Source of the DNA: Cyanidioschyzon merolae
Taxonomy: Eukaryota
Direction: 5' to 3' (one strand)
Assembly: GCA_000091205.1 (NCBI GenBank)
Contig: AP006502.2
Length of the DNA stretch: 64,000 nt
Part shown: piece by piece, positions 1,730 through 64,000 of the stretch
Layout of the letters: the number at the start of each line of letters is the position of its first letter
Numbering within the stretch: position 1 is the first letter of the stretch
The notes under the pieces: generated by a model
The model's input: only the letters and a program-made list of their open reading frames with translations
Databases searched by the model: none
Told to the model about the DNA's origin: nothing
Program-made: the position numbers and the translations under genes

Positions 1730-2625
1730 CCGAGGGAGGCAGCGCTCAGCGCACAGCAGGTGCGTTTGCATACTGCGATCAGGGCCGCGATGTCTATAAC
1801 TGCACTACTGGCGCTTGCTCCGTTTGCGATCAGTGTATCCGAATCGCACTGGTATACCTGTGTATTGAGAGGCTCGACGGTCATCGTAGCGTATCACGAG
1901 CACATATGCTACTCGTCGAAAGCTGCAAACTCGTGATTTATGCGTCGTGCGCGTGTATCCTTCGCTACTGGCATGAGGCTCGTCTTCAAGCGCTGACGCT
2001 AGGGCTTTTGACGCATTCAGCGTTCTGGAGATACCGCCTGATAGCGTGCGTGCCGCTGGCAACGTAGTCCCTGTTGCCACCCGTAGGCGGTTGGGTTCCT
2101 CGAACTCGCTCAGGCATCCGAGCTGGCGATCATTGTCGATTGTTACCGACGCTACGCATGGGAAAAGCCGACCAAAGGCTGGTGCCAAGAACCAAATCGT
2201 TGCGAACGGGGAGTGCTATTCGCCCAGACAGCATCACAATCGGAAGCACCAGCAACACCGGCACCTGAAGGCATTTCGTGTTCCAGGAAAGCCATCTGGG
2301 TGCGTGTTTGTTCGAGTTCCTGGCCAGCAGCTTTGCTTTATCGGTTTTCCGGGCAGCCGCAAGCCTACCAAAATACGGGTTGAGCTCGCTCTGGGGCGAT
2401 CCGCTACGCTGCAGCCTTGCGAGCTGCAGGAATCCGTTTGAAGACGCAAGCGCTACCAGCCACAGACGGAGGAAGCGGTGTGAAGCGCTGCACGTGCACC
2501 GCTCCTAACGCCCAGGAGCACAAGGCCGTGGAACAAGCCTTCCGTCCTGTCCCTGCAGTACGAGCGAGCGTTCGGCAATACACGTCAACAGAAGGATAAA
2601 TGTTTCAAAACCATGACGAGTAAAT

Positions 2626-3491
2626 CTATATACCCATGCGCTGACGCCTCCCGGAACTTTTTGACCAGCCGCCTGCTATCGGTCTCAGTTTCTCCTTGGA
2701 CACTTCGAGACTTCGAGGCTGTCCGAGAACGTTCACCTGCGTCAGCTCCGCGGGTCTTTTCATGAGCTCGGCACATCGTCTGATATTGATGGCGGCATTA
2801 AGGTCTCGGTTCGAAAAGCCCATGCGCCTATCGCCTCTGCTTGAAGTCACCCAGGCAGGGATTCCCAGAACTCGTGCCCGCCGTTCCATTTGATGCTCTG
2901 TCAGCGCTCCCTGCTTTTCTATCGCCGAAACGCTTCGCTGCCTTTTCTCCATATCGACCTTCTGAAATCTACATCTCAGCTCATCCCTTAATTTCTCTTA
3001 AATGAACGCACTTGTTCTTTAGATACCCAAGTGGGAACCTTCCCTGATCGACACGGATATGCAGAAGAGGGGCGAGGTGTGCCCCGGTGTGTCAACGTTT
3101 GCTGAACGCTTCAGCGATTCGTCCAGAAGAGCGATGATTACGTTTCGCAATAGAAGACACTCCTTCGAAGCGGTTCATCCGTGGACAGTGCGGAGTAATG
3201 GAAAGCAGCTCTATTTCGACCGAATCGGGAAAAGCGAAAACTCAAGCGGAACGGTGAAGTGCCACGTTGGTCAATGGAAGGACGTCTACAGATTTCACGG
3301 GAAAAGTCTTCAATGATTCGATCAAGTGGTTGGTTCTGTTGTATGTGCCTGCTGCATGAGCGGAACTGAGGCCGCCGAATGCATCCACCGCAGCTAGAAC
3401 AGACGATCATGGCCTCGTTCTCTTCGAGTTCGATCCTACATACAACAGGTTCGTTCTCCGCCAATGCCGATATACGCCCCGACCGCTTCAT
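2626..3491 (-). mobile_element. Degenerate TnpB/Fanzor-like (IS605 OrfB family) C-terminal fragment: RuvC-II-like, CxxCG zinc finger, RuvC-III
   Basis: Minus-strand ORF 3138..3491 has VVCRIELEENEAM (RuvC-II-like) and CSSCGGC zinc-finger motif. Adjacent ORF 2626..2952 has RDLNAAINIRRC, the hallmark RuvC-III DRDxNAAxNI motif. The two ORFs are in different frames and so were not read as one CDS. Confidence 0.5.
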
Positions 3492-4333
3492 CCGGAGGAA
3501 CTCTCATCGACTGGAAAAACAAACCGACTGGCCTGTGCTTTATGCCGATAGCGGGTTCCAGGAATTCTGCTGTTGCGATTTCGTTCTAAGTTGGTCGTGC
3601 GTAAACTAGGACTTTTTTGCGACTGTATCCCGATGTTTTCAGGACCACACGAATTAGCTGGTGACAAACAGAGACGCCCTTGGCGGCGACGATCTTCGGT
3701 TTTGCCTTCCGCAAAAGGGGATCAACGGGTTGTTTTTGAAGCATCGACCGCAAGCAGTCTCTGAAAATATCGGTTTCTGGCGCGAAGCGCATCTATTGCT
3801 TTGTTTCAGTGTTCCTCAAACGTCTGCCTACTGCGGTATTTCTGAGCGCAATAAGGGATGCAGTCCTCGTTACACTGTTCAGTAAATATTATATCCTACA
3901 GACAACTCGTCTACAATCCATAAACTATATCGCATCGTGATTTCGATCCTCTGCTATCCATTGCGGCCGGCGGGTGCAACAAAATCGTCATGAAATACTG
4001 CAATGCTGAACGTGTCCGAGTACTGTCCTTATCAAGGCGGAATTGGACGCATCTCAGTCGGCTTTGTCGACGCTTGTTCACACTGATGACGAGCATACCT
4101 TTCGCTGCAGTGACGAGCGAGCGCAGCGCGTGCCCGCGGTGCTTGTCAACTGGGGCTCCGTGGCACGCGCTGACACCGGCATCGCTTTCATTGTCCACAT
4201 GCGACAAATCCTTCATCGCAACGATCTCATCGAGTCAAGGGATCGAATGTCTCCGTTTACCGTAACGCAGAACGTTGTCTCCAGATCCAGTACTGCTTTA
4301 CGGGGGCGTCGAATTCTAAGGCAAGCATCTCCC

Positions 4334-5629: not shown

Positions 5630-6993
5630 GTTTGCACAAAGGCTTCGTCCTGTTGTTCGCCTCAAAAACTTGGGAAAGCAGTGACCCCGTCTTCGATTAC
5701 AACAACAATTTCCCAAGGACCGGCACGGTGCAAAACCTGTTCGTTTCCACGAGCCCCCGTGGCTAAGAAAAGCACTCGAAAGCGCGCAGCAAGCCTTCCT
5801 GAGCACAAGCATCGATGATGGACGAGTGAGTCTGGCGGGTTCGAGAGATCGCTGCCGCGCCGGCTTGTGTTCGCTGGAGATCAAGCGCGCAGCAGGCTGC
5901 TGCTTATGGGGTGGTGGTATGGTTGAAACGGGGTTTCGGATAAGTGTGGCAGTGATGATGATGATGATGGTGATGGTATACCAGCTTTCATTGGACACTT
6001 GGCCAAAGCACCGGACTATGATGCAGCGACGGGATTCGCATGTATTTCGTAGCGTGCACTCAAGTGGAGAAATTTTGTTTTGTTGCACTGGATCGGAGAA
6101 GGGGTTTCAACGGCCTTGGTGATCTGATGAACCGATACGAGTCGGATCTCGGCTTGCGAACCTATCGGTGGATAGGCAGCTCACTGCACCGTGCTGCAGC
6201 ATACGAAAGGAGCGTGCTAGAGCGTCCAAAATCGGATGACGCTGAACCCATGTCAGACTGGAATAGAGCGGGTCGACACGAGCGACCTGGGCGTACACCA
6301 TAGATACTTGATTTCATTCGATTCTCATCAACACCAGCTTTTGCGAACCTTTTTCGTGCGACTGCTTCCTTTTTCTTTTTCATGTGGATTGCTCCAACTA
6401 CGCAGGTACTTTTCGTATCGAACGCTTGCTTGTCAGCATACGCAGCTTCGCGATGCAAGGACAAGTCCCGACTTGGCCGCTTCAGGCTCTAATTGACGTC
6501 CTCGAAGCAAAGACGGTCGTTGCGATCGATGTTTCGCTTGACAATTGCATTTTTATTTGTGTACAACCTGGGTGCAAGCTTCACAGCAGCGACACTTGGC
6601 AGTGCGCAGGCATTCTATACGTATATCGAGGCTTCTCACGCGCCGATGGCTGCCTCTTGGCACGGGCAGGCGTGCTTCATTGCTCGGAACATGACCTGGA
6701 CAGGTACAGAGGGCTCTTCTCAATGCCTTTTCACGTTTCCGTGGCTGGCCCTGAAACCCACAATCACCGGCGTGCTCTGGGCGATGCTCGCTGCGAGCAC
6801 GTCGCTCCATTCCATAAAGGATACATGGAACGCTAGCTTGTCCATGATGGAACATTTCATGGAAAGACAATACTGGTTCGCAAATGAGTTGAGAAACTTT
6901 GATCCGTCTACGTCCCTTCGTGCAAAACGGTGGACTACGCCCCACTGGAAGCGATCGCTGTAATCACTCTAGTCCCAGTGCATGAAGCTTGTA

Positions 6994-7053
6994 GTCTTTC
7001 GAGTCGGTGATATTCCACGCACCTGGGTCTGGAATATCACCGACTCGAAAGAC
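6994..7053. repeat. Perfect inverted repeat (24-bp stem, 12-nt loop) hairpin
   Basis: gtctttcgagtcggtgatattcca / cgcacctgggtc / tggaatatcaccgactcgaaagac. The arms are exact reverse complements. Located in the IDH / RabGGT-beta divergent intergenic region. Confidence 0.85.
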
Positions 7054-14399: not shown

Positions 14400-14745
14400 C
14401 TGCTGGCAGTGCACACGAAAAGCGCTCACTTTCACCAACAGACAGGTAGGTAGCTTGAAAGGCAAGGAGGTCGCACTGCAGCAACCATTCCCCCTGATTG
14501 CCTGATTGATATCGCTTTGCGAGCCGGCAGCGCTCACTTTCACCAACAGACAGGTAGGTAGCTTGAAAGGCAAGGAGGTCGCACTGCAGCAACCATGCCC
14601 CCTGATTGCCTGATTGATATCGCCTTGCGAGCCGGCAGCGCTCACTTTCACCAACAGACAGGTAGGTAGCTTGAAAGGCAAGGAGGTCGCGCTGCAGCAA
14701 CCATGCCCCCTGATTGCCTGAACGATATCGCCTCGTTAACCCGCT
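14400..14745. repeat. Minisatellite, 108-bp unit x ~3
   Basis: Unit agcgctcactttcaccaacagacaggtaggtagcttgaaaggcaaggaggtcgc... recurs at 14421, 14529 and 14637 with a few substitutions. Intergenic between ChlG and BRE1. Confidence 0.85.
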
Positions 14746-28508: not shown

Positions 28509-28882
28509 TTTCGCTGCAGACAGCGGAATCCAGTTGCACAGGTCGCTCACGAGCAGAGGGACCCTGTTCGTGAGGAATGGCGCGCCCAAGTGCCGGCGCC
28601 CGAGCAGACGCTGACGAGGCGGTGATCCCAGCGGCTTTGCCAGCTGGCACCAGCAACAAGAAACGCCTTTCAAAAGAAAAACGTTGTCGTCGGTGGTGTA
28701 CAGTAGTGGCGACCAGCGCCCTAGACAAGAAGTCTCTAACTAACGTGCAGACGCCTCCCTCTCTTTTTGGACCGGCCACCTACTGCTACTTCCAATTTTT
28801 TCTCATATGATTCAACCTTAAGAGGTTGGCCCACAAAATTCTCTATTGTCACCTCCGGAGGTCTCTGATCCATCACCGCGCA

Positions 28883-30823
28883 TCACCTAATGTTGATTGC
28901 GGCGTTAAAATCTCGGTTTCGAAACTCCATCCGTTTCTTTCCATTGATTGTACTTACTAATGCAAGCAGTCCTCGAAATTTTGCTCTCCTTTCCATTCGC
29001 TCTTCTGTCAGCGGTCCGTACTTTGCTCTGTTCTCAGGGCTCCTCTGGCACTTTTCCATCTCCACTCTCTGAAGTGTACACCCCAGCTCATGGTAGGTAT
29101 ACAACGTTCGAAACTCATCTACAGGTATCGTAGCGAAACGCCGTGCACACTCCTTGTACGCTCTCGTCGTTGGAGCTGGCGTGGTCGCTTTCTTGGGCGC
29201 CTAGCGCCCTGCTCCGTATGCCACTACGAGCCTCTGACTTTCATTCTACTCGAGGGCGCTCAACTGGCTGAAAAAGATCGCGAATGCATGCTGCTTCCCA
29301 CAGTATAGATGCATTCGCAGAGGAGCCCACCGGGACTTTGTATACTCTTTCCGCAGCGCCTCCCAATATGCAACACGAACTTTCATGAATTTCCGAAAAG
29401 CTTCAAATTCCGCTCCTCGGCTAGTCACCTCGCTCAAAAATTCCAGGTGCTCTTTCAATCCTGCATTCCACGTCTCAATTTTCTTCCTTGCGTTTATCAT
29501 ACCGGATTCTCGATAGTATCTCGCTCTCGAGAATCTCAACAGACGCATGTCCTTCTGACGTAAGTTGCCGTCGTTACCATCTTCCCCACGCTTCGGTGCT
29601 GTGATGGTGATGATATTTGTGTGGCCGGGGTCCGCGCCAACGATAAAATCGTTCTCATGCACTTTCTGCATCGCAGGATTCGCCTCCTTCTCATCTTCAT
29701 GCTTCGTCACGGCCGCAGCCGAAGGCGGAACTGGACGATCTGCCTGCAACCGCCGATAGTGAACACACTTGGATACTTCATTAGTTTCGATCACCCCCAG
29801 TAAATACCTTTTGTTTGCTGATTTTGAGACGTTTGAAATCGAAGATATTCCCCCAGTACGTCTCCCGGTTTTCGCCGGAGAATTCCCCCCTGCTAACACT
29901 GAACTCGGGACTGATCTCCTTCATGATGCCAGGAAGGACGCCGGAGTCGATAGTCACGAAATGTGACTTGATATTGCACAACGAAACCACGTTGAAGCGC
30001 TTCCCCATTAGGACAGCCTTCCGTCTCTCCCACTCTTCATTTGTCTCTTCACTCAACTTCATTTCCGCCTTGCGTTCGAGCTCTCGGTCCAGAAACACGA
30101 AATAGCGCAGGACGAGGCAATAGTATCTTTCCTTCTCTTTTTTCAACGCTAATATCTTGTCTGTTGGATTTGCCAGCCCCAGTACGGCACGGTGCTCTCG
30201 TATAACCGCACGGATTAGAGAAGCTTCATTCGTGCTCCTGCGTGATGTCTTCTCTCCGACGAATTCGATCTGATCTTCATGCTTGCGATCGTTCGTGATG
30301 CCATTGATAATCGCCCATTTTCCATTGCGAGAGATGCTCGGGTAGAGCGCAAACACGGCGCGTATCATGAAACGTTCGAGGTTTACGATCAGATGGTTCT
30401 TAGGGTTCGCGGGGTACTTTTTTTACACCGTATTCGTAAATGCGCCAGTCACTCCTGTATCGAGCACAGCTGAAGGGTATTCAACCTAACTTTCGTGGAG
30501 GCGTGCACGAGGTCATTCCTCCTTGACGTTTCCCCTGTGTCAAACATCAGGTGACGAATAGAGGTCCTGGTGAAAAATTCTTCCCGATCTTCGACTCTTT
30601 TGAGGTCTGTTACGTCTTCGTACAGCTCTTTCTCCAAATGCATCAGTCCTGAGGAAGCGTTACAGACGCTGCTGGAGTACGTCTCGATACGGTTTCTGAT
30701 GGCCTCTTGCAACTTTAGCTCGTACGCCTCTTTGGTATGCTGAGAATGTCTCCTGGGCTTATGCTTCACGCTCTCCCCAGTGGCAGGTGCTTTAGAAAGA
30801 TCTGGGCAGCAACACGTCCGCAA
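28883..30823 (-). mobile_element. Decayed TnpB/Fanzor-like (OMEGA-family RuvC nuclease) element on minus strand, broken into 4 frames, AT-richer than flanks
   Basis: Minus-strand ORF fragments 30449..30823, 29781..30368, 29246..29899, 28883..29104 are colinear but frameshifted. The third carries a RuvC-I-like IVGADPGHTNIITIT. The last ends in EFRNRDFNAAINIR (RuvC-III DRDxNAAxNI hallmark). GC is visibly lower (~45%) than neighbouring genes. Confidence 0.55.
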
Positions 30824-31840
30824 CGCAATTCATTCTGCGACTAGGGGCAGTTAACCCGCGTCCGGGCGTCGCTCTAGTCGCAGTGGACTTCTATAACAAC
30901 GCTTCGCGTTGTTGTGGGCAGTAATTCTATCAGCACAATTTGCTAGTTCCTGGAATGATTATGCGCCCGACCCCTTCTCAGATGAAGCATTCCTCGTTCC
31001 GACGCCCTCATTGACACAGTAAAAGCCGTTCTGTCTCCGTGATGCATCTGCACCAGCGGTATAACTGCTACTGCGGGTGCAGCCAGGCAAGCACTCGGCA
31101 CACGAGAGAATACACGAAACAACCAGTACATCCGAAAGAAAGCATAACTAATGGAACCTGGAGGTACGTTGCAGCATGACGGATGATTTTTCCATTCCGA
31201 ATGCCCATCCATGCCGCAATCCGGCATCCACGGTCGATGGAAACGTTCTGTCATCGGAAAACAAAACTCAGCTACAGCGTGTCGGGTACCGGGCATCCCC
31301 GTACGGCCAGCAGCGGGGCTTCCGACGCTGCAGGGGGCGCGATCGTCGTCGCGTTCCCGCGAATCCCCGATGAAAGGCGCGAGGCCACCTCAGCCGCCAA
31401 TTGACATCCAGCGGATGATGCGCGACGGCGGCACTAGGGGATCGTTTCTTGAACATTTTCAAGCCACTGGGCGCCAGCGACGGGAACGCTAGGCGAAGCA
31501 CTCGTAGGCGCTTGTTGAATCGGTGCGTCTTGGGTGAACGGCGCATACTTGCAGGTAATCGGACTGCACAGAGAGCGCAAGACGCTTGGACTCGAGCAGC
31601 AGCATCGAGGCACGTTTCTCCAGCTGTGTCGAAGAACGGGGTTCGACGGGGCGTTTGAGGCTCACTGCTGCACGCCCACTATTTTATTTGATTGCGCTGT
31701 TTCCATAAAAGTTGCTTTTGGCACAGCGTTGGGTGTCGGCGAGCACCAGAAGAGGGCTTTCGTCGAGATAGAAGCGGGGCTATTAGCGAGCTCGTGAAGT
31801 TTGCGCGTTCAGTTCGCGACGCGGGCGACGTTGCCTCGCC

Positions 31841-33403: not shown

Positions 33404-34850
33404 GTTCTGCTCATGGTAGCGAACGTGTGAGCGTCGCGCAAACGTAAAAGGCGCCATGTACCCGAGTCCTGGCGCGGCACCGGCTTGCGTTGCCCATAGC
33501 CGAAGTGTACCCCAAACATGCCAGTTTTGGATCCAATTCGAAGATTGAACTGCTTGCTCTGTTCCCGACTTGAGATTTTTCTCAGATCTGTTTAAGATAT
33601 TGAAAGGCATGCAAAGCACAGCATTAATGGCGTGTGGCGCCGTACGTAGTATTCGGTTTCTCGGACGTTTTTTTCAGGATGGCTGCTTCGCAGCTTCACT
33701 GCTGGAATTCGTTACGTCAACGCAATCAAGATGATCCACGATGCGCTCGAACAGTGATTCGTAGAACAACCAAAAATATTCTCCAGTTCACAGGTACAAG
33801 CTTCCACTCTATTCCGTGTTGGCGCGGGACATGCTCAAATCACGAATCCATCGTCTTTTCGATCTTGCTGTTTCTAGGCAACTCGCAGACGCAGCGATCT
33901 GCGTCACCGGACTGACCAGGGGAAGTTTTCGACGTCGTCCCTGGACGGCTTCTCCAGACGCTCACGCCAAAACGTTCAATGAAATTGTCGCGTGAAATAT
34001 TCGATTCTGTTGGAAAGACATATCCCCTTGTCTTTGAGGTTACTTACGAATCGGCATTGCACAACAACATGGTACCTCATAGAGGGATATTCCCTCACAT
34101 GTCTCTTTCTCTTGCGTTTGCACGAAAAAGGGTCCTGGACTCGGACTTTATTCAACACAGGGATGGCTTCAGCCAGCGTATACGTTGCCGTTTTGCACGA
34201 AAGGGGCCCAGACAGATCAAAATTCATCGAGTTAATCTGATCCCTGGATGTTCCTCTAGGCATTTGTTTCACCATGGAAAGACGTCGCGTTCCACATATC
34301 CCCCACGGGAATCGAAGAACATACGTCTGTGCATGCCATGCGCAGAGTACTCGCCGGCGAGATCGCCCATAAGGAGCCCATGATCATGGAGTACGGCACT
34401 TGGCGCGGAAACTTAGGAGGATACCGTGCGACGCCTTCGAAGCACATCTGGGGCATGTATCGAGCGATAAGGCAAGCGTTCGCACGCCACGGAGTCGCGC
34501 GCGTAGGAGGAAGCGGGATTCACAGATGTTAGCACCTGATTAGAGCGACGACTCTTCGATACGAGTGGCGCACCGAGGCTGCATACAAAGAAGATGAAAA
34601 TGGCAAGCGAAGCGCAGGTCGCAACTTCCGCCTGTCCATGATCTACATTCAAAACGTCCGGTAGCAGCGAAATCTAGACCTTAACCCTGCCATTAACATT
34701 CTTGCACTGCTGACGATGGAGCTGGAGGGAAAGCAGAGACCAGCGCATGTGAAGCCGGTGATAAAAGAGAAGAAATAGAAGCAGCCGGAGACAAGGCCCG
34801 CAAACGCTGCTGTTGATGCTAATGGCAAAGGCCCGGACTTTAAACTGAAT

Positions 34851-40261: not shown

Positions 40262-40594
40262 ATGGATTGATGCTGATGCACCGCTGACCTGAAGGAGCAT
40301 GCTGGACCTGGGCGTCCATATGACACCCCTGAAAACTGATACACCGCGCCGTACTGCTTGAAGCGGCATCGAATCAGCTTGAAGTGTTAGAGCGGTGGTC
40401 TTTCGCACGCAAACCTCAACGTTTCTATGCTGATTTCAGACCAGAGTGGATCAGGCCCACGTGGCTAACTCGAGCGTATACGCTAAAGTTGAGGTCTCGT
40501 TCCGCTTTCATCTACAGTGATCCTCACAGGCTCGTTCTGAGATTGCTTGGTTCCCTCGATACATCTCTCTCTCTCTCTGTCGGATATCCGGATA

Positions 40595-41095
40595 TCAACA
40601 CGCCGGTCTCGTATATCGTTCCAGCTTCGCTATCAGCAGCAGGATCAGGTTGATGGCAGCGTTAGGGTCGCGATTTCGCCGCTTCTGGCTGTTGTCAATG
40701 TATTTCATGCCCAGGCAAAAGCTAAGATTCACGCATCGCTTGACTTTTTCATCTTTCCCCGAGTCTAGCATCGGTGCGTGCCACGCATTGGGGACTCTTG
40801 CCCGTTGTAAAGTGTTCCCGTATGGCAAAGATCCGTCAGTCTTCGAGAAGCGGCCCCGTGGCACGCGAACGCTTGCTTCATCTCTCGGTGTACGCCCTTG
40901 ACGGAGTACAGAAGGCTCGCCCCAAAGTACTCCTCTGTTTCCGCTTCTGAACGATCCCTTACGGCAAATGCGCTGTCGGCTGCATGCGGAAGCGCACGTT
41001 GTCTCGTTTGATAGGGAAGTTATGGAATGTGATGTTCTCCATGATGGAACAAGTACCGAAAAGAATACGCAGGGTGGAGAACGCGTCGAGCGCAT
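40595..41095 (-). mobile_element. TnpB/Fanzor-like C-terminal remnant
   Basis: ORF tail ...KRRNRDPNAAINLILLLIAKLERYTRPAC carries the same RDxNAAIN motif as the relics at 2626-2952 and 28883-29104. Confidence 0.4.
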
Positions 41096-42140
41096 TCCAA
41101 ATATCTACGCCCCGCATCGTGCAAAGCGATGGCAGACTCCCCAATAGAAGCGATCACTGCGATGACGCAAATCCGAATGCAAGACCCATTTCCATGCAAA
41201 TAGGAGAGACACGGGAGCCCCCGGGAGCGTATCCCCTGAGAAGTAGCACTGCTGCTGCTGCTGCTGCTGAATGCCAAATCATCGCTTGAAGGCCCGCATT
41301 TTAGGTTCAGTTGTTGTTTTTTGCGAGCATTCGATTATTTGAATCGACAATTTCCGTTATCTTTCTGCATGCGAATCTCAACCATTCGTCAAGGGAACAA
41401 GTCGAGTACGTTTTACTCGTCGATGCAACAACGCGAACCGTTACGCCCATGGGATGTTTTGAAATAGAAAGATCGAAAACTTGAAGCGTGCGCGATTGGA
41501 GCATCCTGCACGTACGGAAAGTACAAACGCAGCGGCTCGTACGTACGCGTCGTCGGTTAACGATATCGGGTCTTTTGTACACCCTTGTTCGAGAGTATCA
41601 CCAATCATCTTGATTCCCTTGACCTAACGAGTTCCAGCGGGAACGCGTGGAATGAGCCACTCCAGAGCGAGACAGAGGCACCCCAGCATCCTGCGGTTAC
41701 ATGTAGATCCGTATACCCCTATTGCGGCACATCTAAAAAGTTCGAAAAATAATTTCGTGGAATGAACAGAGCAAGTGGTTCAGTGCTCCGCATGAATCTT
41801 ATACGGCTCTAGTGACTCCTTGGTACGACGAAAGGTTCACAGAGTACGGACTAATGAGCAGCGTTGCGCAATGCACGTCGTGGGACTTGCAACAACTGGG
41901 GTCCGGTCTGTCTGGGTAGGGTGCTGCACCTTGGGCTTGAACACGAACTGGGCGCGCTACTGGATGCGCCCCAGCAGCGATCACTGCTGATCTCACTCCG
42001 CTCGCAGGCAGTTACGATACACAGGGCGCATGTTCGCGAGCAACCCATCCGAAAATCCCTCCGACAGTACGTTTAGGTGCGAGTAAGCTCTTTTCGAGCA
42101 ACGCGTTAGCCAATCGCTCTCAATCCACCAAGTGCCTCCA

Positions 42141-43502: not shown

Positions 43503-43959
43503 GGCGCCTTCGAGTCCTTTGACCGTCCTGCTTGCTGCGTTCCGGCTAAACGACTTGCTCTGCGTGATAAACCTTCCGTTTCCAGAAAGATGCACTCGGC
43601 ACAATGTCGGCTTCGTGACCAGCAGAAGCTAGAGCCGCTTTCCACTGCCCCGCAAAGTGCACCTGTTGCTCGGTACGGTCGCTATTACCTGTTTTCACGC
43701 CTGCTCCAGCACACACTCCCAACTAGCTACGTCCAGGTTCAATCTATGTTCACTATTCTCCACAAGAAACAGTGAAGCAGAAAGGTACAATCGTATACCT
43801 GTTCTGCGTACGAAACTTGAAGAACACTTCGACAGGTGTGAATGTCTTCGCAGTGCGTTGCGTTCCCAGCGAGACTTGTGCGTCGCCTGCATTCTGCCGA
43901 GCTCCGCACTTTTGCCGTCGTTCACCTGAATTATGTTCCGCGCTGAAATACTTGTCACG

Positions 43960-44400
43960 AAATCCTTTTTCGGAGTTTATAGCAAACGCGTTTAAAGTGC
44001 GTTCATTTGAAGGAATAAAAATCCAGGAAAAGGTATGGATGTGCAGGTCGGGGATCTTCGCGGTCTGTCAATACCAGTTGCCCGAAGAAGATCGAAAAAT
44101 CCACTTCTCGCCGACTATCGGGCGAGGAAGCGCAAGTGAATATGAAGATGGACACGGCAGATAGACGAGGAAAGATGTTTGGCCGACGGGAGGATCACAA
44201 GCCTGCAGCGGTACGAGTGGCTCGAGTTCGGGCAATCCTTGCATTGGTTCGTTCAGTTCGAGGCAACGAACGCGCGGAGTTCCTGAAGCGAGACATCAAC
44301 GCCGTCATTCAACATCAGACTATGTGTGGTGTTGAAGTCGAGACCCGGGGAGCTTTCGATATCTAACCTAGTGGGGGTGCCTCTCAGACTCGAAATGGTA
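43960..44400 (+). repeat. Dispersed repeat copy (family T): TnpB/Fanzor 3'-end-derived remnant
   Basis: ~70% nucleotide identity to 47290-47770. Translations are also homologous (FSEFIANAFKVRSFEGIKIQEK.. vs CSQFIADAFEKLSFGEIEIRGK..). Tail ERAEFLKRDINAVI resembles the RDFNAAINI RuvC-III motif. Confidence 0.45.
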
Positions 44401-45501
44401 TCCGGATAAGAGCTGAAACGGATAGCAGTCGGTCGGCCAAAAATGGCTGGGAAGCGTCTGCGCGTGAGTCTTCATGTACCTTCCATGATCTTGGGTGGTT
44501 TTGTTTCACTCACGATTTGGGCGAATACACGACTGAATCGCCGCAAGGGCTGATGTTTTCGGAACGCTCGCTGCGCTCTTCTTTACGACCAGCAGTATAT
44601 GGGCGCTCTTCGCGCGCCTATACACAAGCCTATCATTTTCCCCGAATGACGTCTCATCGCATGAGACGCATACACTTTCATCCTGTCATACGCTTTCGCG
44701 TTTCATTACAAACTCGACGGCGCTTGTTGCTGAAAGCGTGACGGTCTACCATAGAGGCATGCTTTTTTCTTTGTCCATCCGTGTCTCCTCATTACGATGC
44801 GTTCCAGCGGTTCAGATGCCTCACATCCTACGTCTTCTAAGGGAGCAATTTCTCGACAGCGTACGTATTGGATCGCATGCACAAGGCTACAGTCGTGCAG
44901 GCACAGTTTGTTAGATTCTGTTTTGGACGTGCGACTTTCAGGATAAGAACGACGACGACGACGACGAGAAAGGTTGCTCAACCAGCTGCTGACCAAAAAG
45001 TAACCGACATGGACACGAAAGGTTGTTTTTTTTCGCAACCTCTCCCCGATCTACAAAATGCATTCCTTTTGTTGAATACATGGGAGAAAAACAAAAACAA
45101 ACAACAAAAAAGGCGAGCTGGAGCACATGCTCCAGAATGCACTGCTCCAGCTTGAGCGATCGCTTGCATGGAGCAAGCTTGTCAAGTTCGTTGATGGATC
45201 TTACTTCACCTAGTCTGAAGCGTTTTCGGGGCGAGAATCCTTTGTTAGTCTAAGGGAACAGGTATACCTCTCGGGACGATGCTCGCTTAAGGCGAAGATC
45301 TCTATCACAATGGCAAATATATCCTAGTATCTATTCTTTTGCTGAGCGGCTCTTTACCGCGTTATTACTCAAGCGGGCCGCGTTTGATCACGATTTCACC
45401 GGGAAATCGCGCTCCTCTGCAAGTCCATAACTTGCGCTCCTGTTTGTATAGAAACATCAGCTTTGCGATTGCCTGATATTCTAACCTGAGCCCCATGGCT
45501 T

Positions 45502-47013: not shown

Positions 47014-47289
47014 ATGCCTCGCAAATATTTCAACAAAAAAGAATACCCTCGCCGCGAAGTCCAGCGTCGGTTGCAGGCAACGTCACCAGTGCTTCGCTGG
47101 TATCGAAGCGTTACTTTGAACGACCCACCGATGCCGGCGGCCGCGTGTCGCTGCTGGCCGTCATCGGCGGTGACGTGGCTTCTTCTGCAGCCACAATTGC
47201 CTCGATCATCTCTGGACGCAGTGCTGTGGAGCGATGACACGAGCCGGGGGCGATCGTACGAACGATACAGGTGTTTAAAATCAAACGTG

Positions 47290-47770
47290 TTCCAGGATCA
47301 GGTGCGTGTTCTCACATCCTTGTTCGCAGTTCATAGCAGATGCGTTCGAAAAGCTTTCATTTGGAGAAATAGAAATCCGAGGGAAAGGTAGCGCATGGAC
47401 GTTGGGGATCTTGGAGGGCTGTCAGTGCCAGATGTCCGGGAAAAAACCGAAAAATCCTATTTTCGCTAAGTATCGAGCGAAGAGTAGCAACTGAATATGA
47501 AGATGAGGAGGCGAGGTGGGCGAGAAAAGGTGTTTGCACGACGGGATGATGACGAAACTGTAGTGATGCAGAGAGCTCGAGTTCGAGGAAGCCTTGCACG
47601 TATGAGTTCAACCAGAGGCAATAAATGCAAGGAGTTCATTAACCGAGGCTTCAGCGCCATCAGCAATATCAGACGAGGTGCGGTGCTAAAGACGAGACCC
47701 AAGGAGCTTACGCGATTCAACGTTGTCGGGCAGCATCTGATGCTCGAAATGATGCCCGGATAAAAACTGA
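47290..47770 (+). repeat. Dispersed repeat copy (family T), second copy
   Basis: Homologous to 43960-44400. Tail NRGFSAISNIRRGAVLKTRPKELTRFNVVGQ resembles the tail of relic 2626-2952 (NIRRCAELMKRPAELTQVNVLGQ). Confidence 0.45.
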
Positions 47771-47939
47771 ACCGGAGAGCAAGCTGTCTGTCAAAAATTG
47801 ATGGGAGGCGTGTGTGCTTGGGTAACAAGTTACCCTCTACGGCCGTAGAACATTTCTCGTGTTCCCGATTATAGATACATAACATACTCATGGTCGCTGA
47901 AGTTCGGTTTCTCATTCTATGTCGTCATCATCAGTCTTT

Positions 47940-48300
47940 GAGGACCTTTTACGCGACTGCCTCCTTTTCCTACCTCTGATATCCGGCTTTGAAGACGGCG
48001 ATCGTTGCGCTCACTGCTGCTCTTTTTTCAGCAGTCTGAGGATGCTCATGGATGCGTCCAAGTAAGGAGTTAGCCGCTCCTAGCTTTCTTATAACGCATT
48101 TCAGGCGCAGACCGCAGCTGGGATATTTGCTTCGCATGCTATTTTCACCTTCATCGTAGACAATTTCGGTTCGCCTTTCGCACCGGTGACACTTGGCTGT
48201 GGTCGGGTCTTCTCGTGCGTCCGCTAAACCGCATTCATGCGCTGCTCTGCGGCTTACGAATGCTTGCTTCATCGCTCGTTATATGCCTGTAACAGGTGGA
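47940..48300. repeat. Dispersed repeat family Z, copy 1 (~360 bp)
   Basis: Nucleotide similarity to 50300-50660 (e.g. cctttcgcaccggtgacacttggctgtggtcgggtc vs cccttcgcagcggtgacacttgaatgtggtcaggtg). Minus-strand translations share KCHRCE.RT...C (zinc-ribbon-like). Confidence 0.5.
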
Positions 48301-49482
48301 GAAGCGCAAATCCGTGCGGTCTCCAGCCCGACATGAGATTTCAGTGTGGCGTGTGCTCCAAGCGCTGCAGTTCGCGGGGCTGACGTGTGCCTTTCCGATT
48401 CGACCCTGCTTAGATCAGGCCAAAGCCTCGTTGCGATGAATTCAGTATGAGGCACAGCCTACGGAGCGTTGAATGGGATGTACCGGACAAGCTGTTCGCG
48501 CGTTCGGCGCGACTAGAGGCTCCGGTGCATGGGTTCTTCTCCGAACGAGGAAAATTTCCTGTCCAGTGTCGATACCATGGGTCCAGGATGAAATCCGTTT
48601 TGAGCGAATCCCCTGGAAATAAAGCGCTGCCTGCGGCTGTGATTGTCTCATTCTGAAAGATCGTGGAGGCTCCCCAAGAACGCTTCACAATCGCGTTCAA
48701 TCTTTTGCGTGCATCGTTCCGTACGACAGTGCCGCTCGTGTCTATGCGGCACGGCTCCTTGTGCGCAGGCGTCCATTTTATTGAACTGCGACAAGCATGT
48801 ATGGAAACTCTGTTTCAGAGCTTCCCCAGAAGCCCAAGTTCAAACCTTTCTGTAGTCTCGAGTAGCCGTTGAGTCGAGTGCGGACCCAGTATCGTTCTCA
48901 AACATGATAAAATCGTACGGCAAGGTAACCACCGCGAGTGTGATGAAGGGATCGATGCGCTGCTGTGCCTGCAGAATTGAGCAGAACCGACGAAGCGATC
49001 GCAAGACAAACGTGGGGATGTCAGACCTCTTCCTTACCAAATCTTTGCGAGCTCGCGGCACGTGACGGCACCGTCGGCTTATACCCTGTGTATATGAAGA
49101 CCAAGGCAACGTTGCAAGTCGATCGTATTCAGAGCATGCTGTAGCCGCCTCACATCTATTCGGATGTGCGCACTGCGCAGACAATGCTAAATTTTTAGAG
49201 AACAATCCATGACACAATCAGTTCGCGAGTAACCGTCTCTCAAACCCTGTTACGCAAAAGTCCCTCATCTATCAAGAGTCATCGCTTACTGCATGGAGAC
49301 GTTCCCTGCTGGGGGCTGCACACTGATCGGGCGACCGGTGCACCGCGGCACAGCTCGCCATCCGTCGTCGGCGTCCGTTCTGGCTGCAGTCCACGAATAT
49401 CCCGTAACTAAGGAACAGGGTGTTGAACTCATCTGCGTCCAGAAAGGCATTCAAAAGTTCCTGCGGTGCAAGCAGAATCGTC

Positions 49483-50299: not shown

Positions 50300-50660
50300 C
50301 CTAGCTTTTGTAGAATGTTTCATGGACTGCTTCCACTTCCTTTCTCTTATATCTGGCTTTGAAAATGATTGCTTCTCCTTTCCATCCAGCCCTGTTGTCA
50401 GCAGTCGAAATCTATTGATGTCGGTGTTCAAGTCCCGACTACGCGGCTTTCAGCTGTCGTTCGCACATTTCATGTACAGACGGTTGTTGCGCTCGACGTT
50501 TCGTTCGCCATGTTTACCTTCTTTGGTCGCAGACATGGTGCGCCCTTCGCAGCGGTGACACTTGAATGTGGTCAGGTGTGTTCCCTTATGCCAACCAAAC
50601 CGCCCAGCACCGGAGGCTGCACAGTGGCGCGTGCACGCTTGGCTCACCGTTCAGTAAACG
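50300..50660. repeat. Dispersed repeat family Z, copy 2
   Basis: See copy 1. Lies immediately adjacent to the 5' end of track ORF 49483..50298. Confidence 0.5.
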
Positions 50661-52150
50661 CTCTTGACGTGTACAAAAGAATAAGTTCGAAAGCTCCCTC
50701 CAATTCTAGGTCCGGTTCCGTAGCTTGAGATCACATGCTTCATCTGAGCGATGTCCTCGGCAACTGTTTCGTCCTCTTCACGCGAGAACGTATGCTGTTC
50801 CATTCGATAAAGGATTAGGGGAATAAGATGTTGTTCATGATGAACCGAGCCCCGGACGGCAAATTCGAGCTGGAGAACAAGTCAAGCAATGTCGAGCCTG
50901 CTACGCTCCTTCACTTCAAGGCGATGACGCATGCTCGACCGGATGCGATCGCCTCCATGACTCAATCCGAGTCCAAGAACGTTTTTGCTACGCAGCCATA
51001 CGAGACGGGAGCTCCTCGGTGCATCTCCCGAGAGCGGGGTTTCGTGCAGATCTCGAACGCTGTTATGTCGAGGACTCTACCAACAGCACGCTTTGTCTTC
51101 CGAACGGAGTGAATCGGTTATTGGGCATGACATATTCAGTGAACTCACAGCAGCAACACGTGAACATGTCGGCAGGAGACAACCGTAGGGCCCTAGCCGC
51201 ATCAATCAAGCGGTCCGAATGGCTGCGCCTTCGAGTTGCCGTGAAAAGTAAATGTCGAATGCCAGACCAACGATGATTGAGGCATGCTATGCATAAGAAA
51301 GAAAGAAGCGTAGATCCTTGTAAGCATCAACTGAATAATAATATCGATTATTTTACGAACTCTTGTTCAAGTGCATTGCGAATCAAGTATACTCCGGTGT
51401 CGTAACGAACATCAGCAGCTCAGAGTCGAAAGAGCCACTCCGCAAAAACGACCGAGGGCTCTAGGACCGCATATGAATCCGTAAGCCCTTATGACAACAT
51501 TTCGAATGTCGAGGCTGTATATCGAGAAAAGCTCAGGGACAAACTGGAAAGCAGGAGCATCGCGAGTCGTGCAATGCTCGATTTATAATTGACATGGGTG
51601 CAACATCTGAGGAAGCAACTAATGCTGCTTTTGAAACGCTCAGCGTCTCACACGCTTCACAAGAAACTTCCTCGGAAATCATGATCATTTCGCACGCTCC
51701 ACGGCCTGACTATCCATGCTGCAACGTCGAACGCAGGGCGGCGGGTATCCCGCGGACCCATTGCGCTGACAATACGAAGACCCGCGAACTGCGTCGCAAT
51801 GTCCATTTCGTCGCTTCGGTCCTTAGCAAGTGCTCGAGCACGCAGACAAGCAGTCGCCCGCTCGTTTCCTCTGCACTTGGTTACGGTGGGAGCGATTTAT
51901 TGCGTACAAAAAATTCAGCTTCATTTCTTCGCTGAACGAGGCAGAGAACGTTTGGAAGCACTGAAACGGCTGGAGGAGTGCACATCGCCGTGCTTTTCGC
52001 GGAGTTAGACCACTCGCACGTTGCACGCAATTCGAACTGAAGAAACTCCATGCGCTGCTAACAAGTCTTGCACGCGTCTGATAAATCAGCTAGTCCACCC
52101 TATCTTGCCTAGGTATAGGGATACCGCTCGCATTTCTGGTACATTCGATC

Positions 52151-56248: not shown

Positions 56249-57864
56249 GCAGAGAATTCTGGAGTGCCTGTATCAGCACGCTGTTTTCGATTTATTTCGG
56301 GTTTCTCGCATACAGTCAACAAAGGAATGCATCCTGTACATTACAGAGAAGACACGGAAAGACTGGTGCTGTCAATGCTAGGATGCGTTCCATGGCCCTA
56401 CGACTACAAGTTCGCCGTTCTGCGCTCAGCGCGTGCATGAACCACACTCGTCGTTGCCCCTGAGCTGAACGTCCTGCACCCAAACCAGATCCCAGAGAAC
56501 GCCCACTAAACGACCGTCTCTCTGTCGATTCACGCCACGACATGCAGTCTCGAACAGGCCGCTATCACAGATGCCAAAGAATGCGACGTTTCCGTTCCGC
56601 AGATGCGAACGGCCACGAACACACGCAGACGGACAACCGAAAACGGCATGCTTATGAGCGGAACTGTCGCACGTCCAGCTGCACACACTTGATTCCGCAC
56701 GGAGACGCGTGTGAGCGCTTCCCATGGGCGACAAGCGCTCATCATCTCGGTCGCAGAGACCTCATTCCCGAGAATACCTGCATCACAATATGGGTACGCC
56801 AAGCAGGGCGTACCGCTGTTCGTAACGAAGGGACGCACGGGAAGACCGGCAGCACCAGCCCGAGTGGCAGTGCGGCCGTGTGGAGGCCTGCACTCGCGAA
56901 ACGCACAGCATCGTGCACTACGTCATCCCGTGTCTGAGCTGTCTCGTCGCGCGTTCATCTCCATACACTGGGTTGTCCTGATCGCGGACGACGCTGCTTT
57001 CCATCACTCAAACCCGGTCAAGGAGCGCGCACCTGAGGCAGGCGTTGAGCGGCTCCCTCCACTGGCTCGTGCTTCTGGGTTCATTCAAGTCGAGGCGTCT
57101 GCGCTGTTGTCAAGTGCCGTTTTCGCAGGCACGCGTCCGTGCACGAGCCGCTCGCAACCGTGAAACGCGTCTTGCACAATTCGTCTCTTGGTCTGTGTCA
57201 GCGATGAACTGGAGTGTTGCCCCTGTGCTCGTGGGCATGCGGCAGCGCGCCGGCGTGCTTCGGTCCTTGAGCGTGCCCGCGACGAACAGGATGACGAAAA
57301 GGTAACTAGATATACATATGTACGTGGGGCAGGGGATGTTTAGTGGCACTGTTTGCACACCGCACCGAGTCCAGGAGAGAAACCGGATGGAAAGCATCGG
57401 AAACACTGTTTGGCACACAGCGACGTGAGGGAGATTCAGAAGGATACCACCAGGCAAAGAAGAGGGAGATTCTCCGGGAAAGAGCGCAACAATGGGCATG
57501 AATGAAAAGCTGTCGGGGCGGAAAGATCAAACGTACGCCGTCCTTGAGGCGTCTCCGCCGAAACACATCAATGGGGAGAATGCTCCAGGACGTGAAATGC
57601 AGGATGCTATTAGGGATCGCACAGCGTCTTACTCGACACGTCGTGTCCAGCACCTCGCGCCTCGGTGCATACCGCCGAAGCATTGTTTTACGAGTTCTGG
57701 AAGAAGGTCTGGCAGCTGTCCACATTCCTCTGGATTATTTCGATCCAACTATCGTGCAGCAAGAGAACGGATGCTCGCGACAGACGATTCTCGATGGCCC
57801 AGTCATATGGTTCGAGATTCGCACAAACGCCTCGAATCGTACCTCGACATGCGCCAGCACAACG
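56249..57864. repeat. Direct repeat copy 1 (at least 1616 bp, identical to 62385-64000; copy 2 truncated by window end)
   Basis: Identical six-frame ORF sets offset by exactly 6136 bp (e.g. 56316..56543 = 62452..62679; 57306..57725 = 63442..63861). Sequence is identical after two mismatches at the left edge. Confidence 0.9.
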
Positions 57865-59280
57865 TCTTCGCTCGAAAAATGTTCTGCAGTGCATGTGCCA
57901 AATGGTATCAAATGCCTAACTGCAGACCGAAAAGCCTATGTTGGTGAACCTCGAGAGCTTCATGGAGCGCACCGTGTGGGCGTTGTATCCTCATCTTCGT
58001 GGGCCCGCAAAGAAGAGCTGATGGAGGGGATTCTCTGCTCCAGCTTGTACATGAGTGCCACTAGGTGTCACGGGGGCGATCCCTGGCATGGGCACGTGGT
58101 GTCGCGCTGGGGCCGCCACCCGTATCGCAGTGCGGAGGCAAGAGGCGTGTATTCGGGCACACGTTCAATGCGTCAGAAGAAGGAGATGATTGAGAGGTCG
58201 CGTCGCTTGCCCGTAGCCTATGGCGCTGCTCGTTCCGGGCAGCGTAAAACCTGCACTCGTACAGCCTTCGCGCCGAATGTGCAACGACTGCAGGAATCGA
58301 TGCTGCACAACTCCCATAGATGCATCCCCGACGACATACGCGCCTCACGAGCACGAGTGCACCCTGCAACAGGCCCAGAAGCAGTATGTGGAATGGAGTC
58401 GCATGCACGAGATGGCCTACGACCAGCTCAGCAAACATCAGATGCCGAGGCAATCGCCAGTGAGACGCTCGGTATGGTAGGATTCCACAGGCCGCAGTAC
58501 GCCCGAGCGAACAGTATCTGCGCGGAGACTTCAGCCCATCGATGACCTGCAGGTACCGTCTTGCACTTGCAGAGCGTCCGGCTTCCTTGCGTCGAGCGAG
58601 TTCTCGATGTCTACGCTCAGCACGCATCAGTCTGGGCGCTTCGCGAAAACGCTGCAGACCTGCGACGGAAGATAGAAACCCCATTGCCCAGGAGAGCGGG
58701 CATTGGATTCAAGCTTGAAGCGAGCCACAGGTATGGTATGGTACCGCGATCCAGCAAGATTACAGCGCTCAATATCTGCACCGAAAAACCTTTCCCAGGG
58801 CACCTGCTAGACGATATTTGGGTTTTGTTCCACGATATCACCCATCCTGGTCAAGTACCGCTCCAACTGAACATAAACGGTACCTGATTCCACGCTTACG
58901 AACTTTGCACACACATCCCGTGAATTCTGGTTGAACGCAAGCGTCCAGCACGATGCCATACCACAAAACACAGAGCCGTGGAAGCCGATGCACCAGAGGT
59001 CGCCTCGTCACGCTCGACGAGCGCCTCTGTTGGCGCTACGCCAGCGTTCCCAGTCGGCAGTCTAAAATCGACGCTGGCGACGTGCAGGCGGGCGAGTGTA
59101 CCCAGGAGCGGCGTGTGTCCAGCACCGGCGCCTGCGCGTTGCCAGCGTCGATTTTAGACTGCCGCCCCGGTCAACGAAGCGCTTGTCGTGGCCCGCGACG
59201 CATACCGAATCCAGGCGGTGCTCGGTAGCTTGTCGAGACGTTCAGCAACGTCTCTCTGGACCAAAAGTCGTGTGTGTTCC

Positions 59281-62298: not shown

Positions 62299-62384
62299 AA
62301 GGCTCTGGAAGAGAATGCAATCCGGGAACACCAGCCGCTACAGCAGCGACAACACTCTGCCTCGGAACCTAGACAAGCCCTGGA

Positions 62385-64000
62385 GCAGAGAATTCTTGAG
62401 TACCTGTATCAGCACGCTGTTTTCGATTTATTTCGGGTTTCTCGCATACAGTCAACAAAGGAATGCATCCTGTACATTACAGAGAAGACACGGAAAGACT
62501 GGTGCTGTCAATGCTAGGATGCGTTCCATGGCCCTACGACTACAAGTTCGCCGTTCTGCGCTCAGCGCGTGCATGAACCACACTCGTCGTTGCCCCTGAG
62601 CTGAACGTCCTGCACCCAAACCAGATCCCAGAGAACGCCCACTAAACGACCGTCTCTCTGTCGATTCACGCCACGACATGCAGTCTCGAACAGGCCGCTA
62701 TCACAGATGCCAAAGAATGCGACGTTTCCGTTCCGCAGATGCGAACGGCCACGAACACACGCAGACGGACAACCGAAAACGGCATGCTTATGAGCGGAAC
62801 TGTCGCACGTCCAGCTGCACACACTTGATTCCGCACGGAGACGCGTGTGAGCGCTTCCCATGGGCGACAAGCGCTCATCATCTCGGTCGCAGAGACCTCA
62901 TTCCCGAGAATACCTGCATCACAATATGGGTACGCCAAGCAGGGCGTACCGCTGTTCGTAACGAAGGGACGCACGGGAAGACCGGCAGCACCAGCCCGAG
63001 TGGCAGTGCGGCCGTGTGGAGGCCTGCACTCGCGAAACGCACAGCATCGTGCACTACGTCATCCCGTGTCTGAGCTGTCTCGTCGCGCGTTCATCTCCAT
63101 ACACTGGGTTGTCCTGATCGCGGACGACGCTGCTTTCCATCACTCAAACCCGGTCAAGGAGCGCGCACCTGAGGCAGGCGTTGAGCGGCTCCCTCCACTG
63201 GCTCGTGCTTCTGGGTTCATTCAAGTCGAGGCGTCTGCGCTGTTGTCAAGTGCCGTTTTCGCAGGCACGCGTCCGTGCACGAGCCGCTCGCAACCGTGAA
63301 ACGCGTCTTGCACAATTCGTCTCTTGGTCTGTGTCAGCGATGAACTGGAGTGTTGCCCCTGTGCTCGTGGGCATGCGGCAGCGCGCCGGCGTGCTTCGGT
63401 CCTTGAGCGTGCCCGCGACGAACAGGATGACGAAAAGGTAACTAGATATACATATGTACGTGGGGCAGGGGATGTTTAGTGGCACTGTTTGCACACCGCA
63501 CCGAGTCCAGGAGAGAAACCGGATGGAAAGCATCGGAAACACTGTTTGGCACACAGCGACGTGAGGGAGATTCAGAAGGATACCACCAGGCAAAGAAGAG
63601 GGAGATTCTCCGGGAAAGAGCGCAACAATGGGCATGAATGAAAAGCTGTCGGGGCGGAAAGATCAAACGTACGCCGTCCTTGAGGCGTCTCCGCCGAAAC
63701 ACATCAATGGGGAGAATGCTCCAGGACGTGAAATGCAGGATGCTATTAGGGATCGCACAGCGTCTTACTCGACACGTCGTGTCCAGCACCTCGCGCCTCG
63801 GTGCATACCGCCGAAGCATTGTTTTACGAGTTCTGGAAGAAGGTCTGGCAGCTGTCCACATTCCTCTGGATTATTTCGATCCAACTATCGTGCAGCAAGA
63901 GAACGGATGCTCGCGACAGACGATTCTCGATGGCCCAGTCATATGGTTCGAGATTCGCACAAACGCCTCGAATCGTACCTCGACATGCGCCAGCACAACG
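62385..64000. repeat. Direct repeat copy 2, beginning 87 bp after the SERCA stop codon
   Basis: See copy 1; the window ends inside the repeat. Confidence 0.9.

Follow-up and report, generated by a model that had tools for sequence, protein, structure and literature searches.

The presence of two minus-strand open reading frames (ORFs) in the nuclear DNA of the red alga Cyanidioschyzon merolae raises the question of whether they are the broken halves of a single nuclease gene. Both ORFs (2626..2952, 108 aa; 3138..3491, 117 aa) occur in a 64,000-nucleotide stretch of DNA, here called the window, and both lie in the 2.6 kb that separate a pair of convergent host genes, one for a WD40 protein that ends at 1729 and one for isocitrate dehydrogenase that ends at 4334. 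The window has ~55% G+C and long intron-free ORFs on both strands; one of its ORFs, at 45502-47013, is CYME_CMT236C of C. merolae 10D (100% identity over 503 residues). ORF 2626..2952 contains RDLNAAINIRRC, and ORF 3138..3491 contains VVCRIELEENEAM, followed by CSSCGGC. In the original prediction, the pair was taken for a TnpB-like relic in which RuvC-II, a CxxCG zinc finger and RuvC-III follow one another in a gene split by a frameshift. We found that this is half right. The downstream ORF belongs to a Fanzor1 gene (E 2e-38), and the upstream ORF, as judged by profile and homolog searches, is unrelated to it. The features of the locus, which we term copy A, are listed below (all on the minus strand; B, D and E are other copies in the window, and L numbers denote related loci).

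~4005 to ~2583, minus strand: copy A, the whole element, comprising a transposase relic, a Fanzor leader, a deletion, a Fanzor end and a tail.
3015..4005, minus strand: region X, a decayed IS630/Tc1-mariner-like DDE_3 transposase gene that forms the 5' part of a CMe-1 subfamily (homology to metagenome loci; Pfam hit of the consensus).
3095..3721, minus strand: frame of the transposase catalytic core, with three in-frame stops (three-frame translation against the X consensus).
3138..3491, minus strand: spurious ORF in a frame other than that of the transposase relic (frames, profile, homolog search, related copies).
2986..3013, minus strand: Fanzor leader, corresponding to consensus ~869-895, with the ATG at 906 (alignment with L017b, D, E and the consensus; blast in L081, L073 and L017).
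2985/2984, minus strand: deletion junction, where the leader is fused directly to consensus position 2737 (alignment and blast coordinates).
2984..2636, minus strand: Fanzor1 remnant of CMe-1 type, the last ~116 codons (blastn, nhmmer, BLASTP, family profile).
2773..2808, minus strand: RuvC-III motif RDLNAAINIRRC, with the counterpart of D672 of the consensus protein (sequence).
2583..2635, minus strand: eroded 3' non-coding tail of approximate end, which aligns with L081, L017b, L055, D and E as far as '...TTGAC' and then diverges.

The motif RDLNAAINIRRC is a genuine remnant of RuvC-III, because the sequence that holds it, 2984..2636 on the minus strand, matches the consensus of the transposable element CMe-1A as both DNA and protein. 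At the DNA level, it is 69.8% identical to consensus positions 2737-3084 over 348 bp (blastn, E 2e-38), and it matches a CMe-1 DNA profile, made from the consensus together with 19 full-length copies, at E 3.6e-48 (nhmmer). At the protein level, it is 61% identical to consensus residues 612-725 over 114 aa (BLASTP, E 5e-40), and positions 543-621 of a Fanzor1 family profile match 2982..2695 at E 1.1e-16. RDLNAAINIRRC falls on CMe-1 NRDFNAAINIRRC and, in the profile alignment, on the RuvC-III region of the Fanzor1 from Parasitella parasitica; the longer stretch NRDLNAAINIRRC, at 2811..2773, aligns with the consensus NRDFNAAINIRRC, so that the aspartate of RDxNAAxNI, D672 in the consensus protein, is retained. 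The original reading of this motif as RuvC-III was thus correct. Pfam and NCBIfam scans of single ORFs returned sub-threshold noise only; the Pfam model Cas12f1-like_TNB touches the RuvC-III motif of copy A at E 0.23, below threshold. The reading frame across the remnant is open from 2997 to 2629 (123 codons), and it is 51% identical over 113 aa to 29089..28751 in copy B (E 2.5e-30); DNA similarity of 66-70% ties the remnant to three other sites in the window. The fragments that had been grouped by their motif can be aligned to one another far outside it. A frame of 123 codons that is still open is somewhat unexpected in an old neutral relic, and part of the divergence of copy A probably stems from functional ancestors.

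CMe-1A is a known inhabitant of this genome. It has been described in C. merolae as ~150 copies with ~80% identity each to a consensus of 3169 bp, in which a single exon encodes a Fanzor1 of 734 aa; terminal inverted repeats were not found, its transposon class was left unknown, and a separate repeat, TE-N2_CMe, corresponds to its first 635 bp (Bao & Jurka 2013, PMC3627910). The consensus that we used was taken from the supplementary file of that report. Conceptual translation of copy B, the most complete copy in the window, matches 108 protein clusters, most of them 580-750 aa in length and 60-75% identical, which carry the precomputed Pfam label PF26935/DUF8286; a literature search found no mention of DUF8286. 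A family profile built from nine homologs of copy B contains the catalytic motifs GADPG (RuvC-I), VDEFRTS (RuvC-II) and NRDFNAAINIRRC (RuvC-III). This profile matches the Fanzor1 structures from P. parasitica (9cf0, E 1.1e-14) and Guillardia theta (9cer, E 6e-4), with the GxDPG, DEFRTS and NRDxAA motifs aligned, and it has 4905 relatives at E <= 0.001 in a 50%-identity library of 1.84 billion representatives. By similarity to characterised Fanzor1 proteins, the parent family of the remnant is therefore assigned to Fanzor1, the eukaryotic homolog of TnpB that acts in characterised relatives as an omega-RNA-guided DNA endonuclease (Saito et al. 2023, PMC10432273). A CCCC zinc finger is shared by TnpB and by SpuFz1 of Spizellomyces punctatus (PMC10432273), but CxxC/C4 fingers are absent across the CMe-1 clade, which has TSYTHHELGC...C instead; the sequence that follows VDEFRTS in the family is YTHHELGCTLQRVEMEKC. 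The family had been called once active and now degraded. This is only partly so: copies that still encode an intact Fanzor1 have been reported in the C. merolae genome (Bao & Jurka 2013, PMC3627910), and many intact Fanzor1 ORFs are found in related hot-spring metagenome contigs.

Upstream of the remnant, the locus has a different origin. Four metagenome loci, which are among those retrieved for their Fanzor genes, contain stretches of 860-970 bp that are 70-71% identical to the sequence at 2988-3999. In two of the related loci, L081 and L073, ~45 nt separate the end of X from CMe-1A consensus position 869, beyond which lies a full Fanzor1 ORF. From the 5' boundary that they share and on through the Fanzor gene, these two loci are 73% identical to one another; outside the element they have nothing in common, and they are therefore independent copies of one ~3.2-kb element. 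A majority consensus of X from only five copies, the window copy among them, has ~200 codons readable in one frame, and its translation matches Pfam DDE_3 (PF13358) at E 7.9e-19 and 68.4 bits, against a cut-off of 28.6 bits. The window copy by itself falls below significance in Pfam; its assignment to a transposase hence rests on DNA homology to the copies whose consensus passes. Segments of the transposase frame can be read in copy A as FVFPVDESS ... LPLTNVALHRS ... PHCPRMNRFEG, and the gene is decayed in all X-type copies seen. Inverted matches between the ends of the X-type element are at noise level, and neither terminal inverted repeats nor TA duplications were recognised. The view that transposase and Fanzor form one mobile unit thus rests on the 5' boundary and the junction that independent loci have in common.

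What separates region X from the remnant in copy A is a large deletion. The Fanzor leader stops ~10 nt short of the position of the start codon, and ~1.84 kb, consensus ~896-2736, is missing, including RuvC-I and RuvC-II; also missing are the last ~85 nt of the consensus. What remains is ~30% diverged from the CMe-1A consensus. The RuvC-II glutamate and its [TS][TS] are not retained, since VDEFRTS (E603) lies 9 residues before the first kept residue, 612. For the RuvC-I aspartate (GxDxG, near profile position 371), there is no match on the Fanzor strand upstream of 2984. Across 3000-4334, scored with a database size of one, the family profile has no positive score on the minus (Fanzor) strand; the sole positive score, 1.3 bits, is on the opposite strand. 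As DNA, 2985-4334 scores 33 against the upstream part of copy B, compared with 31.3 +/- 3.2 for shuffles. A degenerate RuvC-II, TASKEC...LLDESLKRS in the frame 3174..3022, was considered and rejected, as neither profile nor DNA supports it and the stretch is part of the transposase relic. With RuvC-I and RuvC-II lost, no nuclease can come from copy A. Copy A is a fossil that cannot encode a nuclease or a transposase and, judging from its sequence, the locus probably does nothing.

We conclude that ~4005..~2583 on the minus strand very probably represents a single copy of a C. merolae composite DNA transposon, now dead and with an internal deletion. Its homologies, architecture, deletion and decay are observed directly in the comparisons above. 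In the full-length form, as represented by related contigs, an IS630/Tc1-mariner-type DDE_3 transposase gene is followed by a CMe-1-type Fanzor1 gene in the same orientation; copy A has its transposase gene decayed, its leader in place, ~1.84 kb lost, and the last ~116 codons, with RuvC-III, kept. Membership of the transposase in its family suggests that the parent element was moved by a DDE transposase, and the matched Fanzor1 structures, together with published work on other Fanzors, suggest that the ancestral Fanzor1 may have been an RNA-guided nuclease.

Copy A is not alone in the window, where the following relics were also found.

28664..31256, minus strand: copy B, a CMe-1A copy with both termini (blastn, nhmmer; family profile positions 45-617 over several frames).
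43918..44468, plus strand: copy D, a CMe-1A derivative shortened by internal deletion (nhmmer model positions 792-1066 and 2923-3166).
47271..47842, plus strand: copy E, with the deletion architecture of copy D (nhmmer model positions 791-1073 and 2915-3187; profile E 3.6e-11).
57480..58465, plus strand: copy F, an older, diverged Fanzor1-like relic with N- and C-terminal pieces only (family profile; weak nhmmer matches).
63616..64000, plus strand: copy G, which repeats the start of copy F and breaks off where the window stops (profile positions 12-130, E 5.9e-6).
40558..41674, minus strand: family Y copy that contains the fragment 40595-41095 (nhmmer).
33658..34787, plus strand: family Y copy of full model length (nhmmer; included in model building).
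50325..51456, minus strand: family Y copy of full model length (nhmmer E 9.1e-194; left out of model building).
6358..6991, minus strand: family Y copy, the 3' 660 model positions (nhmmer E 1.7e-89).
47953..48304, minus strand: family Y copy, the 3' 350 model positions, carrying TTAKCHRCE (nhmmer E 2.1e-49; ORF translation).

In copy B, 31256..30748 corresponds to consensus 1-499 (76.6% identity) and 30739..28664 to consensus 1089-3169 (85.8% over 2084 bp); consensus 500-1088, including the start codon, is deleted, and the frame is shifted in places. In copy D, the 5' leader and the first codons are fused to the last ~250 nt. Copy D is 72% identical to copy E over 511 bp, and copy E is 69.6% identical to copy A over 250 bp. 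Within the resolution of the alignment, the same internal deletion is present in copies D and E and in the metagenomic copy L017b, and copies D and E have no flanking sequence in common; this suggests that the deleted derivative behind all three was itself copied. The short deletion derivatives always retain the last 250-350 nt of the Fanzor gene. Copy F matches the profile at positions 12-148 (E 5.5e-7) and 511-567 (E 4.3e-5). Copies F and G lie in a direct repeat, in which 62382-64000 is 99.8% identical to 56246-57864.

The remaining relics constitute a second family, Y. In the Y consensus, a DDE_3 transposase (E 1.9e-10) is represented by its N-terminal two thirds and is joined to a Fanzor C-terminus that reads VVDIWEHLTTAKCHRCEG ... 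NRDFNAAINI; this C-terminus scores E 5.3e-11 against the CMe-1-type profile and E 1e-6 (29.3 bits, above the cut-off) against Pfam Cas12f1-like_TNB. A search for terminal inverted repeats in family Y found nothing above noise. The sister subfamily, with X and Fanzor1, and family Y both pair a DDE_3 transposase with a Fanzor C-terminus. The motif order that had been expected at 2626-3491 is found in the Y consensus; the order thus does occur in the window, only not at that locus. The fragment 40595-41095 had been counted as a CMe-1 copy, but the CMe-1 profile scores it at 3.2 bits, at the level of the motif only, and we reassign it to family Y. Four of the five copies in that count therefore stand, with wider limits (copy A, 28664-31256, 43918-44468 and 47271-47842), and the fifth belongs to another family, albeit one with a Fanzor-derived consensus. 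The impression of a window rich in such relics is borne out, and six were not in the earlier list (57480-58465, 63616-64000, 6358-6991, 33658-34787, 47953-48304 and 50325-51456). Altogether, four CMe-1-lineage relics, two older ones and five of family Y make eleven, which occupy ~11-12 kb of the 64 kb. From the published figure of ~150 copies, and a C. merolae genome that we take to be ~16.5 Mb, ~0.6 copies of CMe-1A would be expected per 64 kb. Compared with the relics counted, this makes the region look enriched.

These facts bear on other explanations of the locus. It is very improbable that a single TnpB/Fanzor gene, split by a frameshift, has its C-terminal half in ORFs 3138-3491 and 2626-2952. 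IELEENEAM and CSSCGGC resemble a RuvC-II motif and a zinc finger, and they stand upstream of a true RuvC-III on the same strand, but the family profile scores the IELEENEAM stretch at -2.4 bits, and ORF 3138-3491 has no homolog among 5.8 billion proteins. Its frame is interrupted by stops and indels in L017, L081 and L073, and the cysteine pattern is not conserved, with CSDCNGF or CSNCDGL in place of CSSCGGC in related copies. Further, the region is homologous, in another frame, to a DDE_3 transposase gene, and the family has its RuvC-II 9 residues upstream of the remnant, not ~130 codons, and no CxxC finger. ORF 3138-3491 runs in an alternative frame across a decayed DDE_3 transposase gene and is not part of a Fanzor or TnpB; the order of RuvC-II, CxxCG and RuvC-III proposed for a frameshifted gene falls with it, E603 itself having been deleted. 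The opposite extreme, that RDxNAAxNI arose here by chance with no homology at all, has nothing in its favor beyond the shortness of the motif, and the matches to the published consensus (E 2e-38 as DNA, E 5e-40 as protein) leave it a vanishingly small probability.

A third explanation grants the homology but not the inertness of the locus: as in “ghost”-type loci, the retained 3' end of the Fanzor gene might still yield an omega-RNA, with a new guide taken from flanking DNA, for use in trans by an intact Fanzor1. The omega-RNA scaffold overlaps the end of the ORF in TnpB and some Fanzors (Saito et al. 2023, PMC10432273), and the short copies A, D and E all keep the last 250-350 nt. The deletion junction common to D, E and a metagenomic copy indicates that such derivatives were seemingly copied, and a terminal hairpin is conserved, with compensatory variants, in younger copies. 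This hairpin was examined copy by copy, since RNAalifold, applied to 39 copies over their last 270 nt, yielded little conserved structure, with only 9 weak pairs. Copy A, however, is ~30% diverged, and the small hairpin present in the tails of L081 and L017b is degenerate in its own. Folding of 2984..2583 is no better than that of shuffles (z -0.06), as against z -1.80 for the equivalent region of the younger copy B, and no omega-RNA has been defined for the CMe-1 family. Conserved ends with an omega-RNA scaffold are thus not what copy A displays, as its tail is eroded and a structural signal is absent; we give this explanation only a small chance. A separate matter, which concerns only the origin of the dead composite transposon copy that we favor, is whether the deletion occurred in place after insertion of a full-length X-type element, or whether an already deleted, non-autonomous copy was inserted. 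None of 80 related loci has the junction of copy A (consensus ~895 to 2737), which differs from the junction common to D, E and L017b; both facts speak for deletion in place. But these 80 loci were chosen for a long Fanzor ORF, and short derivatives are therefore under-sampled among them; moreover, deleted derivatives have evidently been copied, as D, E and L017b illustrate and as does TE-N2_CMe (Bao & Jurka 2013, PMC3627910). We put deletion in place at slightly less than an even chance.

How does copy A compare to known systems? It shares its genome with CMe-1A and is colinear with consensus 2737-3084, and copy B follows the consensus end to end at 77-86%; the divergence of the copies, the ~3-kb length and the absence of terminal inverted repeats agree with the published description. 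Unlike CMe-1A, copy A has a DDE_3 relic as its 5' part, with no similarity to consensus 1-868, TE-N2_CMe included. Copy A therefore represents a sister subfamily, one that is not listed by Bao & Jurka (2013, PMC3627910). The family profile matches the REC/RuvC region of the solved Fanzor1 structures from P. parasitica (9cf0) and G. theta (9cer), with the D, E and D motifs aligned, whereas copy A keeps the RuvC-III part only. Mariner-Fanzor1 composites, such as PUl-1 and PUl-2 of Pythium ultimum and others, likewise carry a Tc1/mariner-type transposase gene and a Fanzor1 gene in one element (PMC3627910); the published ones are bounded by terminal inverted repeats of 24-33 bp and by TA duplications, whereas none were found in the X-type. 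More distant is the bacterial TnpB of IS200/IS605 and IS607, which has the same RuvC-III motif, RDxNAAxNI, but differs from this family in that the latter has a eukaryotic host, a Fanzor1-type N-terminal architecture, no zinc finger and another partner transposase. In S. punctatus, many loci keep their ends with no intact Fanzor ORF (PMC10432273). Those ghost loci are well conserved, with 30-nt inverted repeats and functional omega-RNAs, whereas copy A is diverged and has no structural signal. Given the many partial Fanzor genes and ORF-less ghost loci in S. punctatus, remnants like copy A are to be expected.

The 2013 report on C. merolae already covered this family, including how many copies there are, how old they are and that they are Fanzor1, and the biochemistry of Fanzor1 has been known since 2023; the locus thus has little weight as a discovery. 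The analysis does provide exact limits for eleven Fanzor-derived relics in the window, and it offers a lesson: where an ORF happens to be open out of frame across an unrelated transposase relic, a plausible order of RuvC-II, CxxC and RuvC-III can emerge. What is new, and only mildly so, is that the X-type subfamily and family Y both carry a DDE_3 transposase, which points to a partner for a family that earlier work had left without a transposon class. A broader scenario, which we regard as unlikely, is that the Fanzor1 family of C. merolae was originally cargo of IS630/Tc1-mariner-type DDE transposons, from which short derivatives, non-autonomous and possibly guide-RNA-bearing, may have been mobilised. 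Copy A would then be one of these derivatives, and not a randomly decayed gene.

Repeat family Y is a second Fanzor-derived family of C. merolae, and it is absent among the families of Bao and Jurka (2013, PMC3627910). Its copies in the window were located by a family model search:

6358-6991, family Y copy
33658-34787, family Y copy
40558-41674, family Y copy
47953-48304, family Y copy
50325-51456, family Y copy

The family Y consensus joins an N-terminal part from a DDE_3 transposase to a Fanzor C-terminus, the latter retaining TTAKCHRCEG and NRDFNAAINI. The model (1.13 kb) is shorter than the element, both ends of which run past it. Shorter repeats also occur in the window; the tandem arrays have periods of about 108, 62 and 80 bp, respectively, and identities of 90-98%.

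14421-14733, tandem array
34851-35033, tandem array, beginning just beyond a family Y copy, on its 3' side
37916-38132, tandem array
6994-7053, palindromic stretch (60 bp, 87% self-complementarity), adjoining a family Y copy
59055-59164, palindromic stretch (110 bp, 77% self-complementarity)

Copy F (57480-58465) is an older Fanzor1-like relic, in which only N-terminal and C-terminal pieces (positions 12-148 and 511-567 of the Fanzor1 family profile) are recognisable. Related DNA is present in three metagenome loci (L065, L067 and L036), and copy F may stand for a third, older family. The window also contains a direct repeat (56246-57864 and 62382-64000; 99.8% identity) of at least 1619 bp, whose second copy reaches the window end. 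The distance between the copies is 6136 bp, and between them lies a gene:

59188-62298, P-type cation ATPase gene (1036 aa)

The ATPase region may have been duplicated in tandem recently; alternatively, the repeat may be an assembly duplicate.

The 3' end of CMe-1A, the published Fanzor1 element, carries a hairpin of 8-12 bp (window 28664-28700; 3' ends of L003-L082). It has two main versions, with pairing preserved in each:

Version 1, GCCGTTCGA-CTT-TCGAACGGC
Version 2, ACGTTTTTC-TTTT-GAAAGGCGT

The mean folding energy is -10.95 kcal/mol, versus -6.84 in shuffles. Most copies share two extra T residues past the published consensus end, ...GGCG.

Directly upstream of the RuvC-I motif, CMe-1-type Fanzor1 contains a 75-79-nt unit (consensus 2117-2195) coding for some 25 residues of the type ATKHEEKKEA..TQKVQDNDLVV. 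Fanzor1 length is variable because the number of units differs between copies, from one to five.

L071:4507-4808, repeat unit
L017:4496-4574, repeat unit
P0001 and P0012, repeat unit in related proteins

The D, E, D catalytic motifs are retained across the CMe-1/DUF8286 clade (P0001-P0107). The clade lacks the CCCC zinc finger, whereas SpuFz1 and TnpB have this finger in common (Saito et al. 2023, PMC10432273); despite its absence, many ORFs are intact.

In the X-type elements, a CMe-1-type Fanzor1 ORF stands immediately 3' of a decayed DDE_3 transposase gene:

L081:2213-5450, X-type element
L073:2212-5520, X-type element
L017:7242-8700, X-type element

A search of these elements for terminal inverted repeats found none; their 5' boundary is common to independent loci. 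The CMe-1 family was left without a transposon class in its publication (Bao and Jurka 2013, PMC3627910), and the X-type architecture suggests one.
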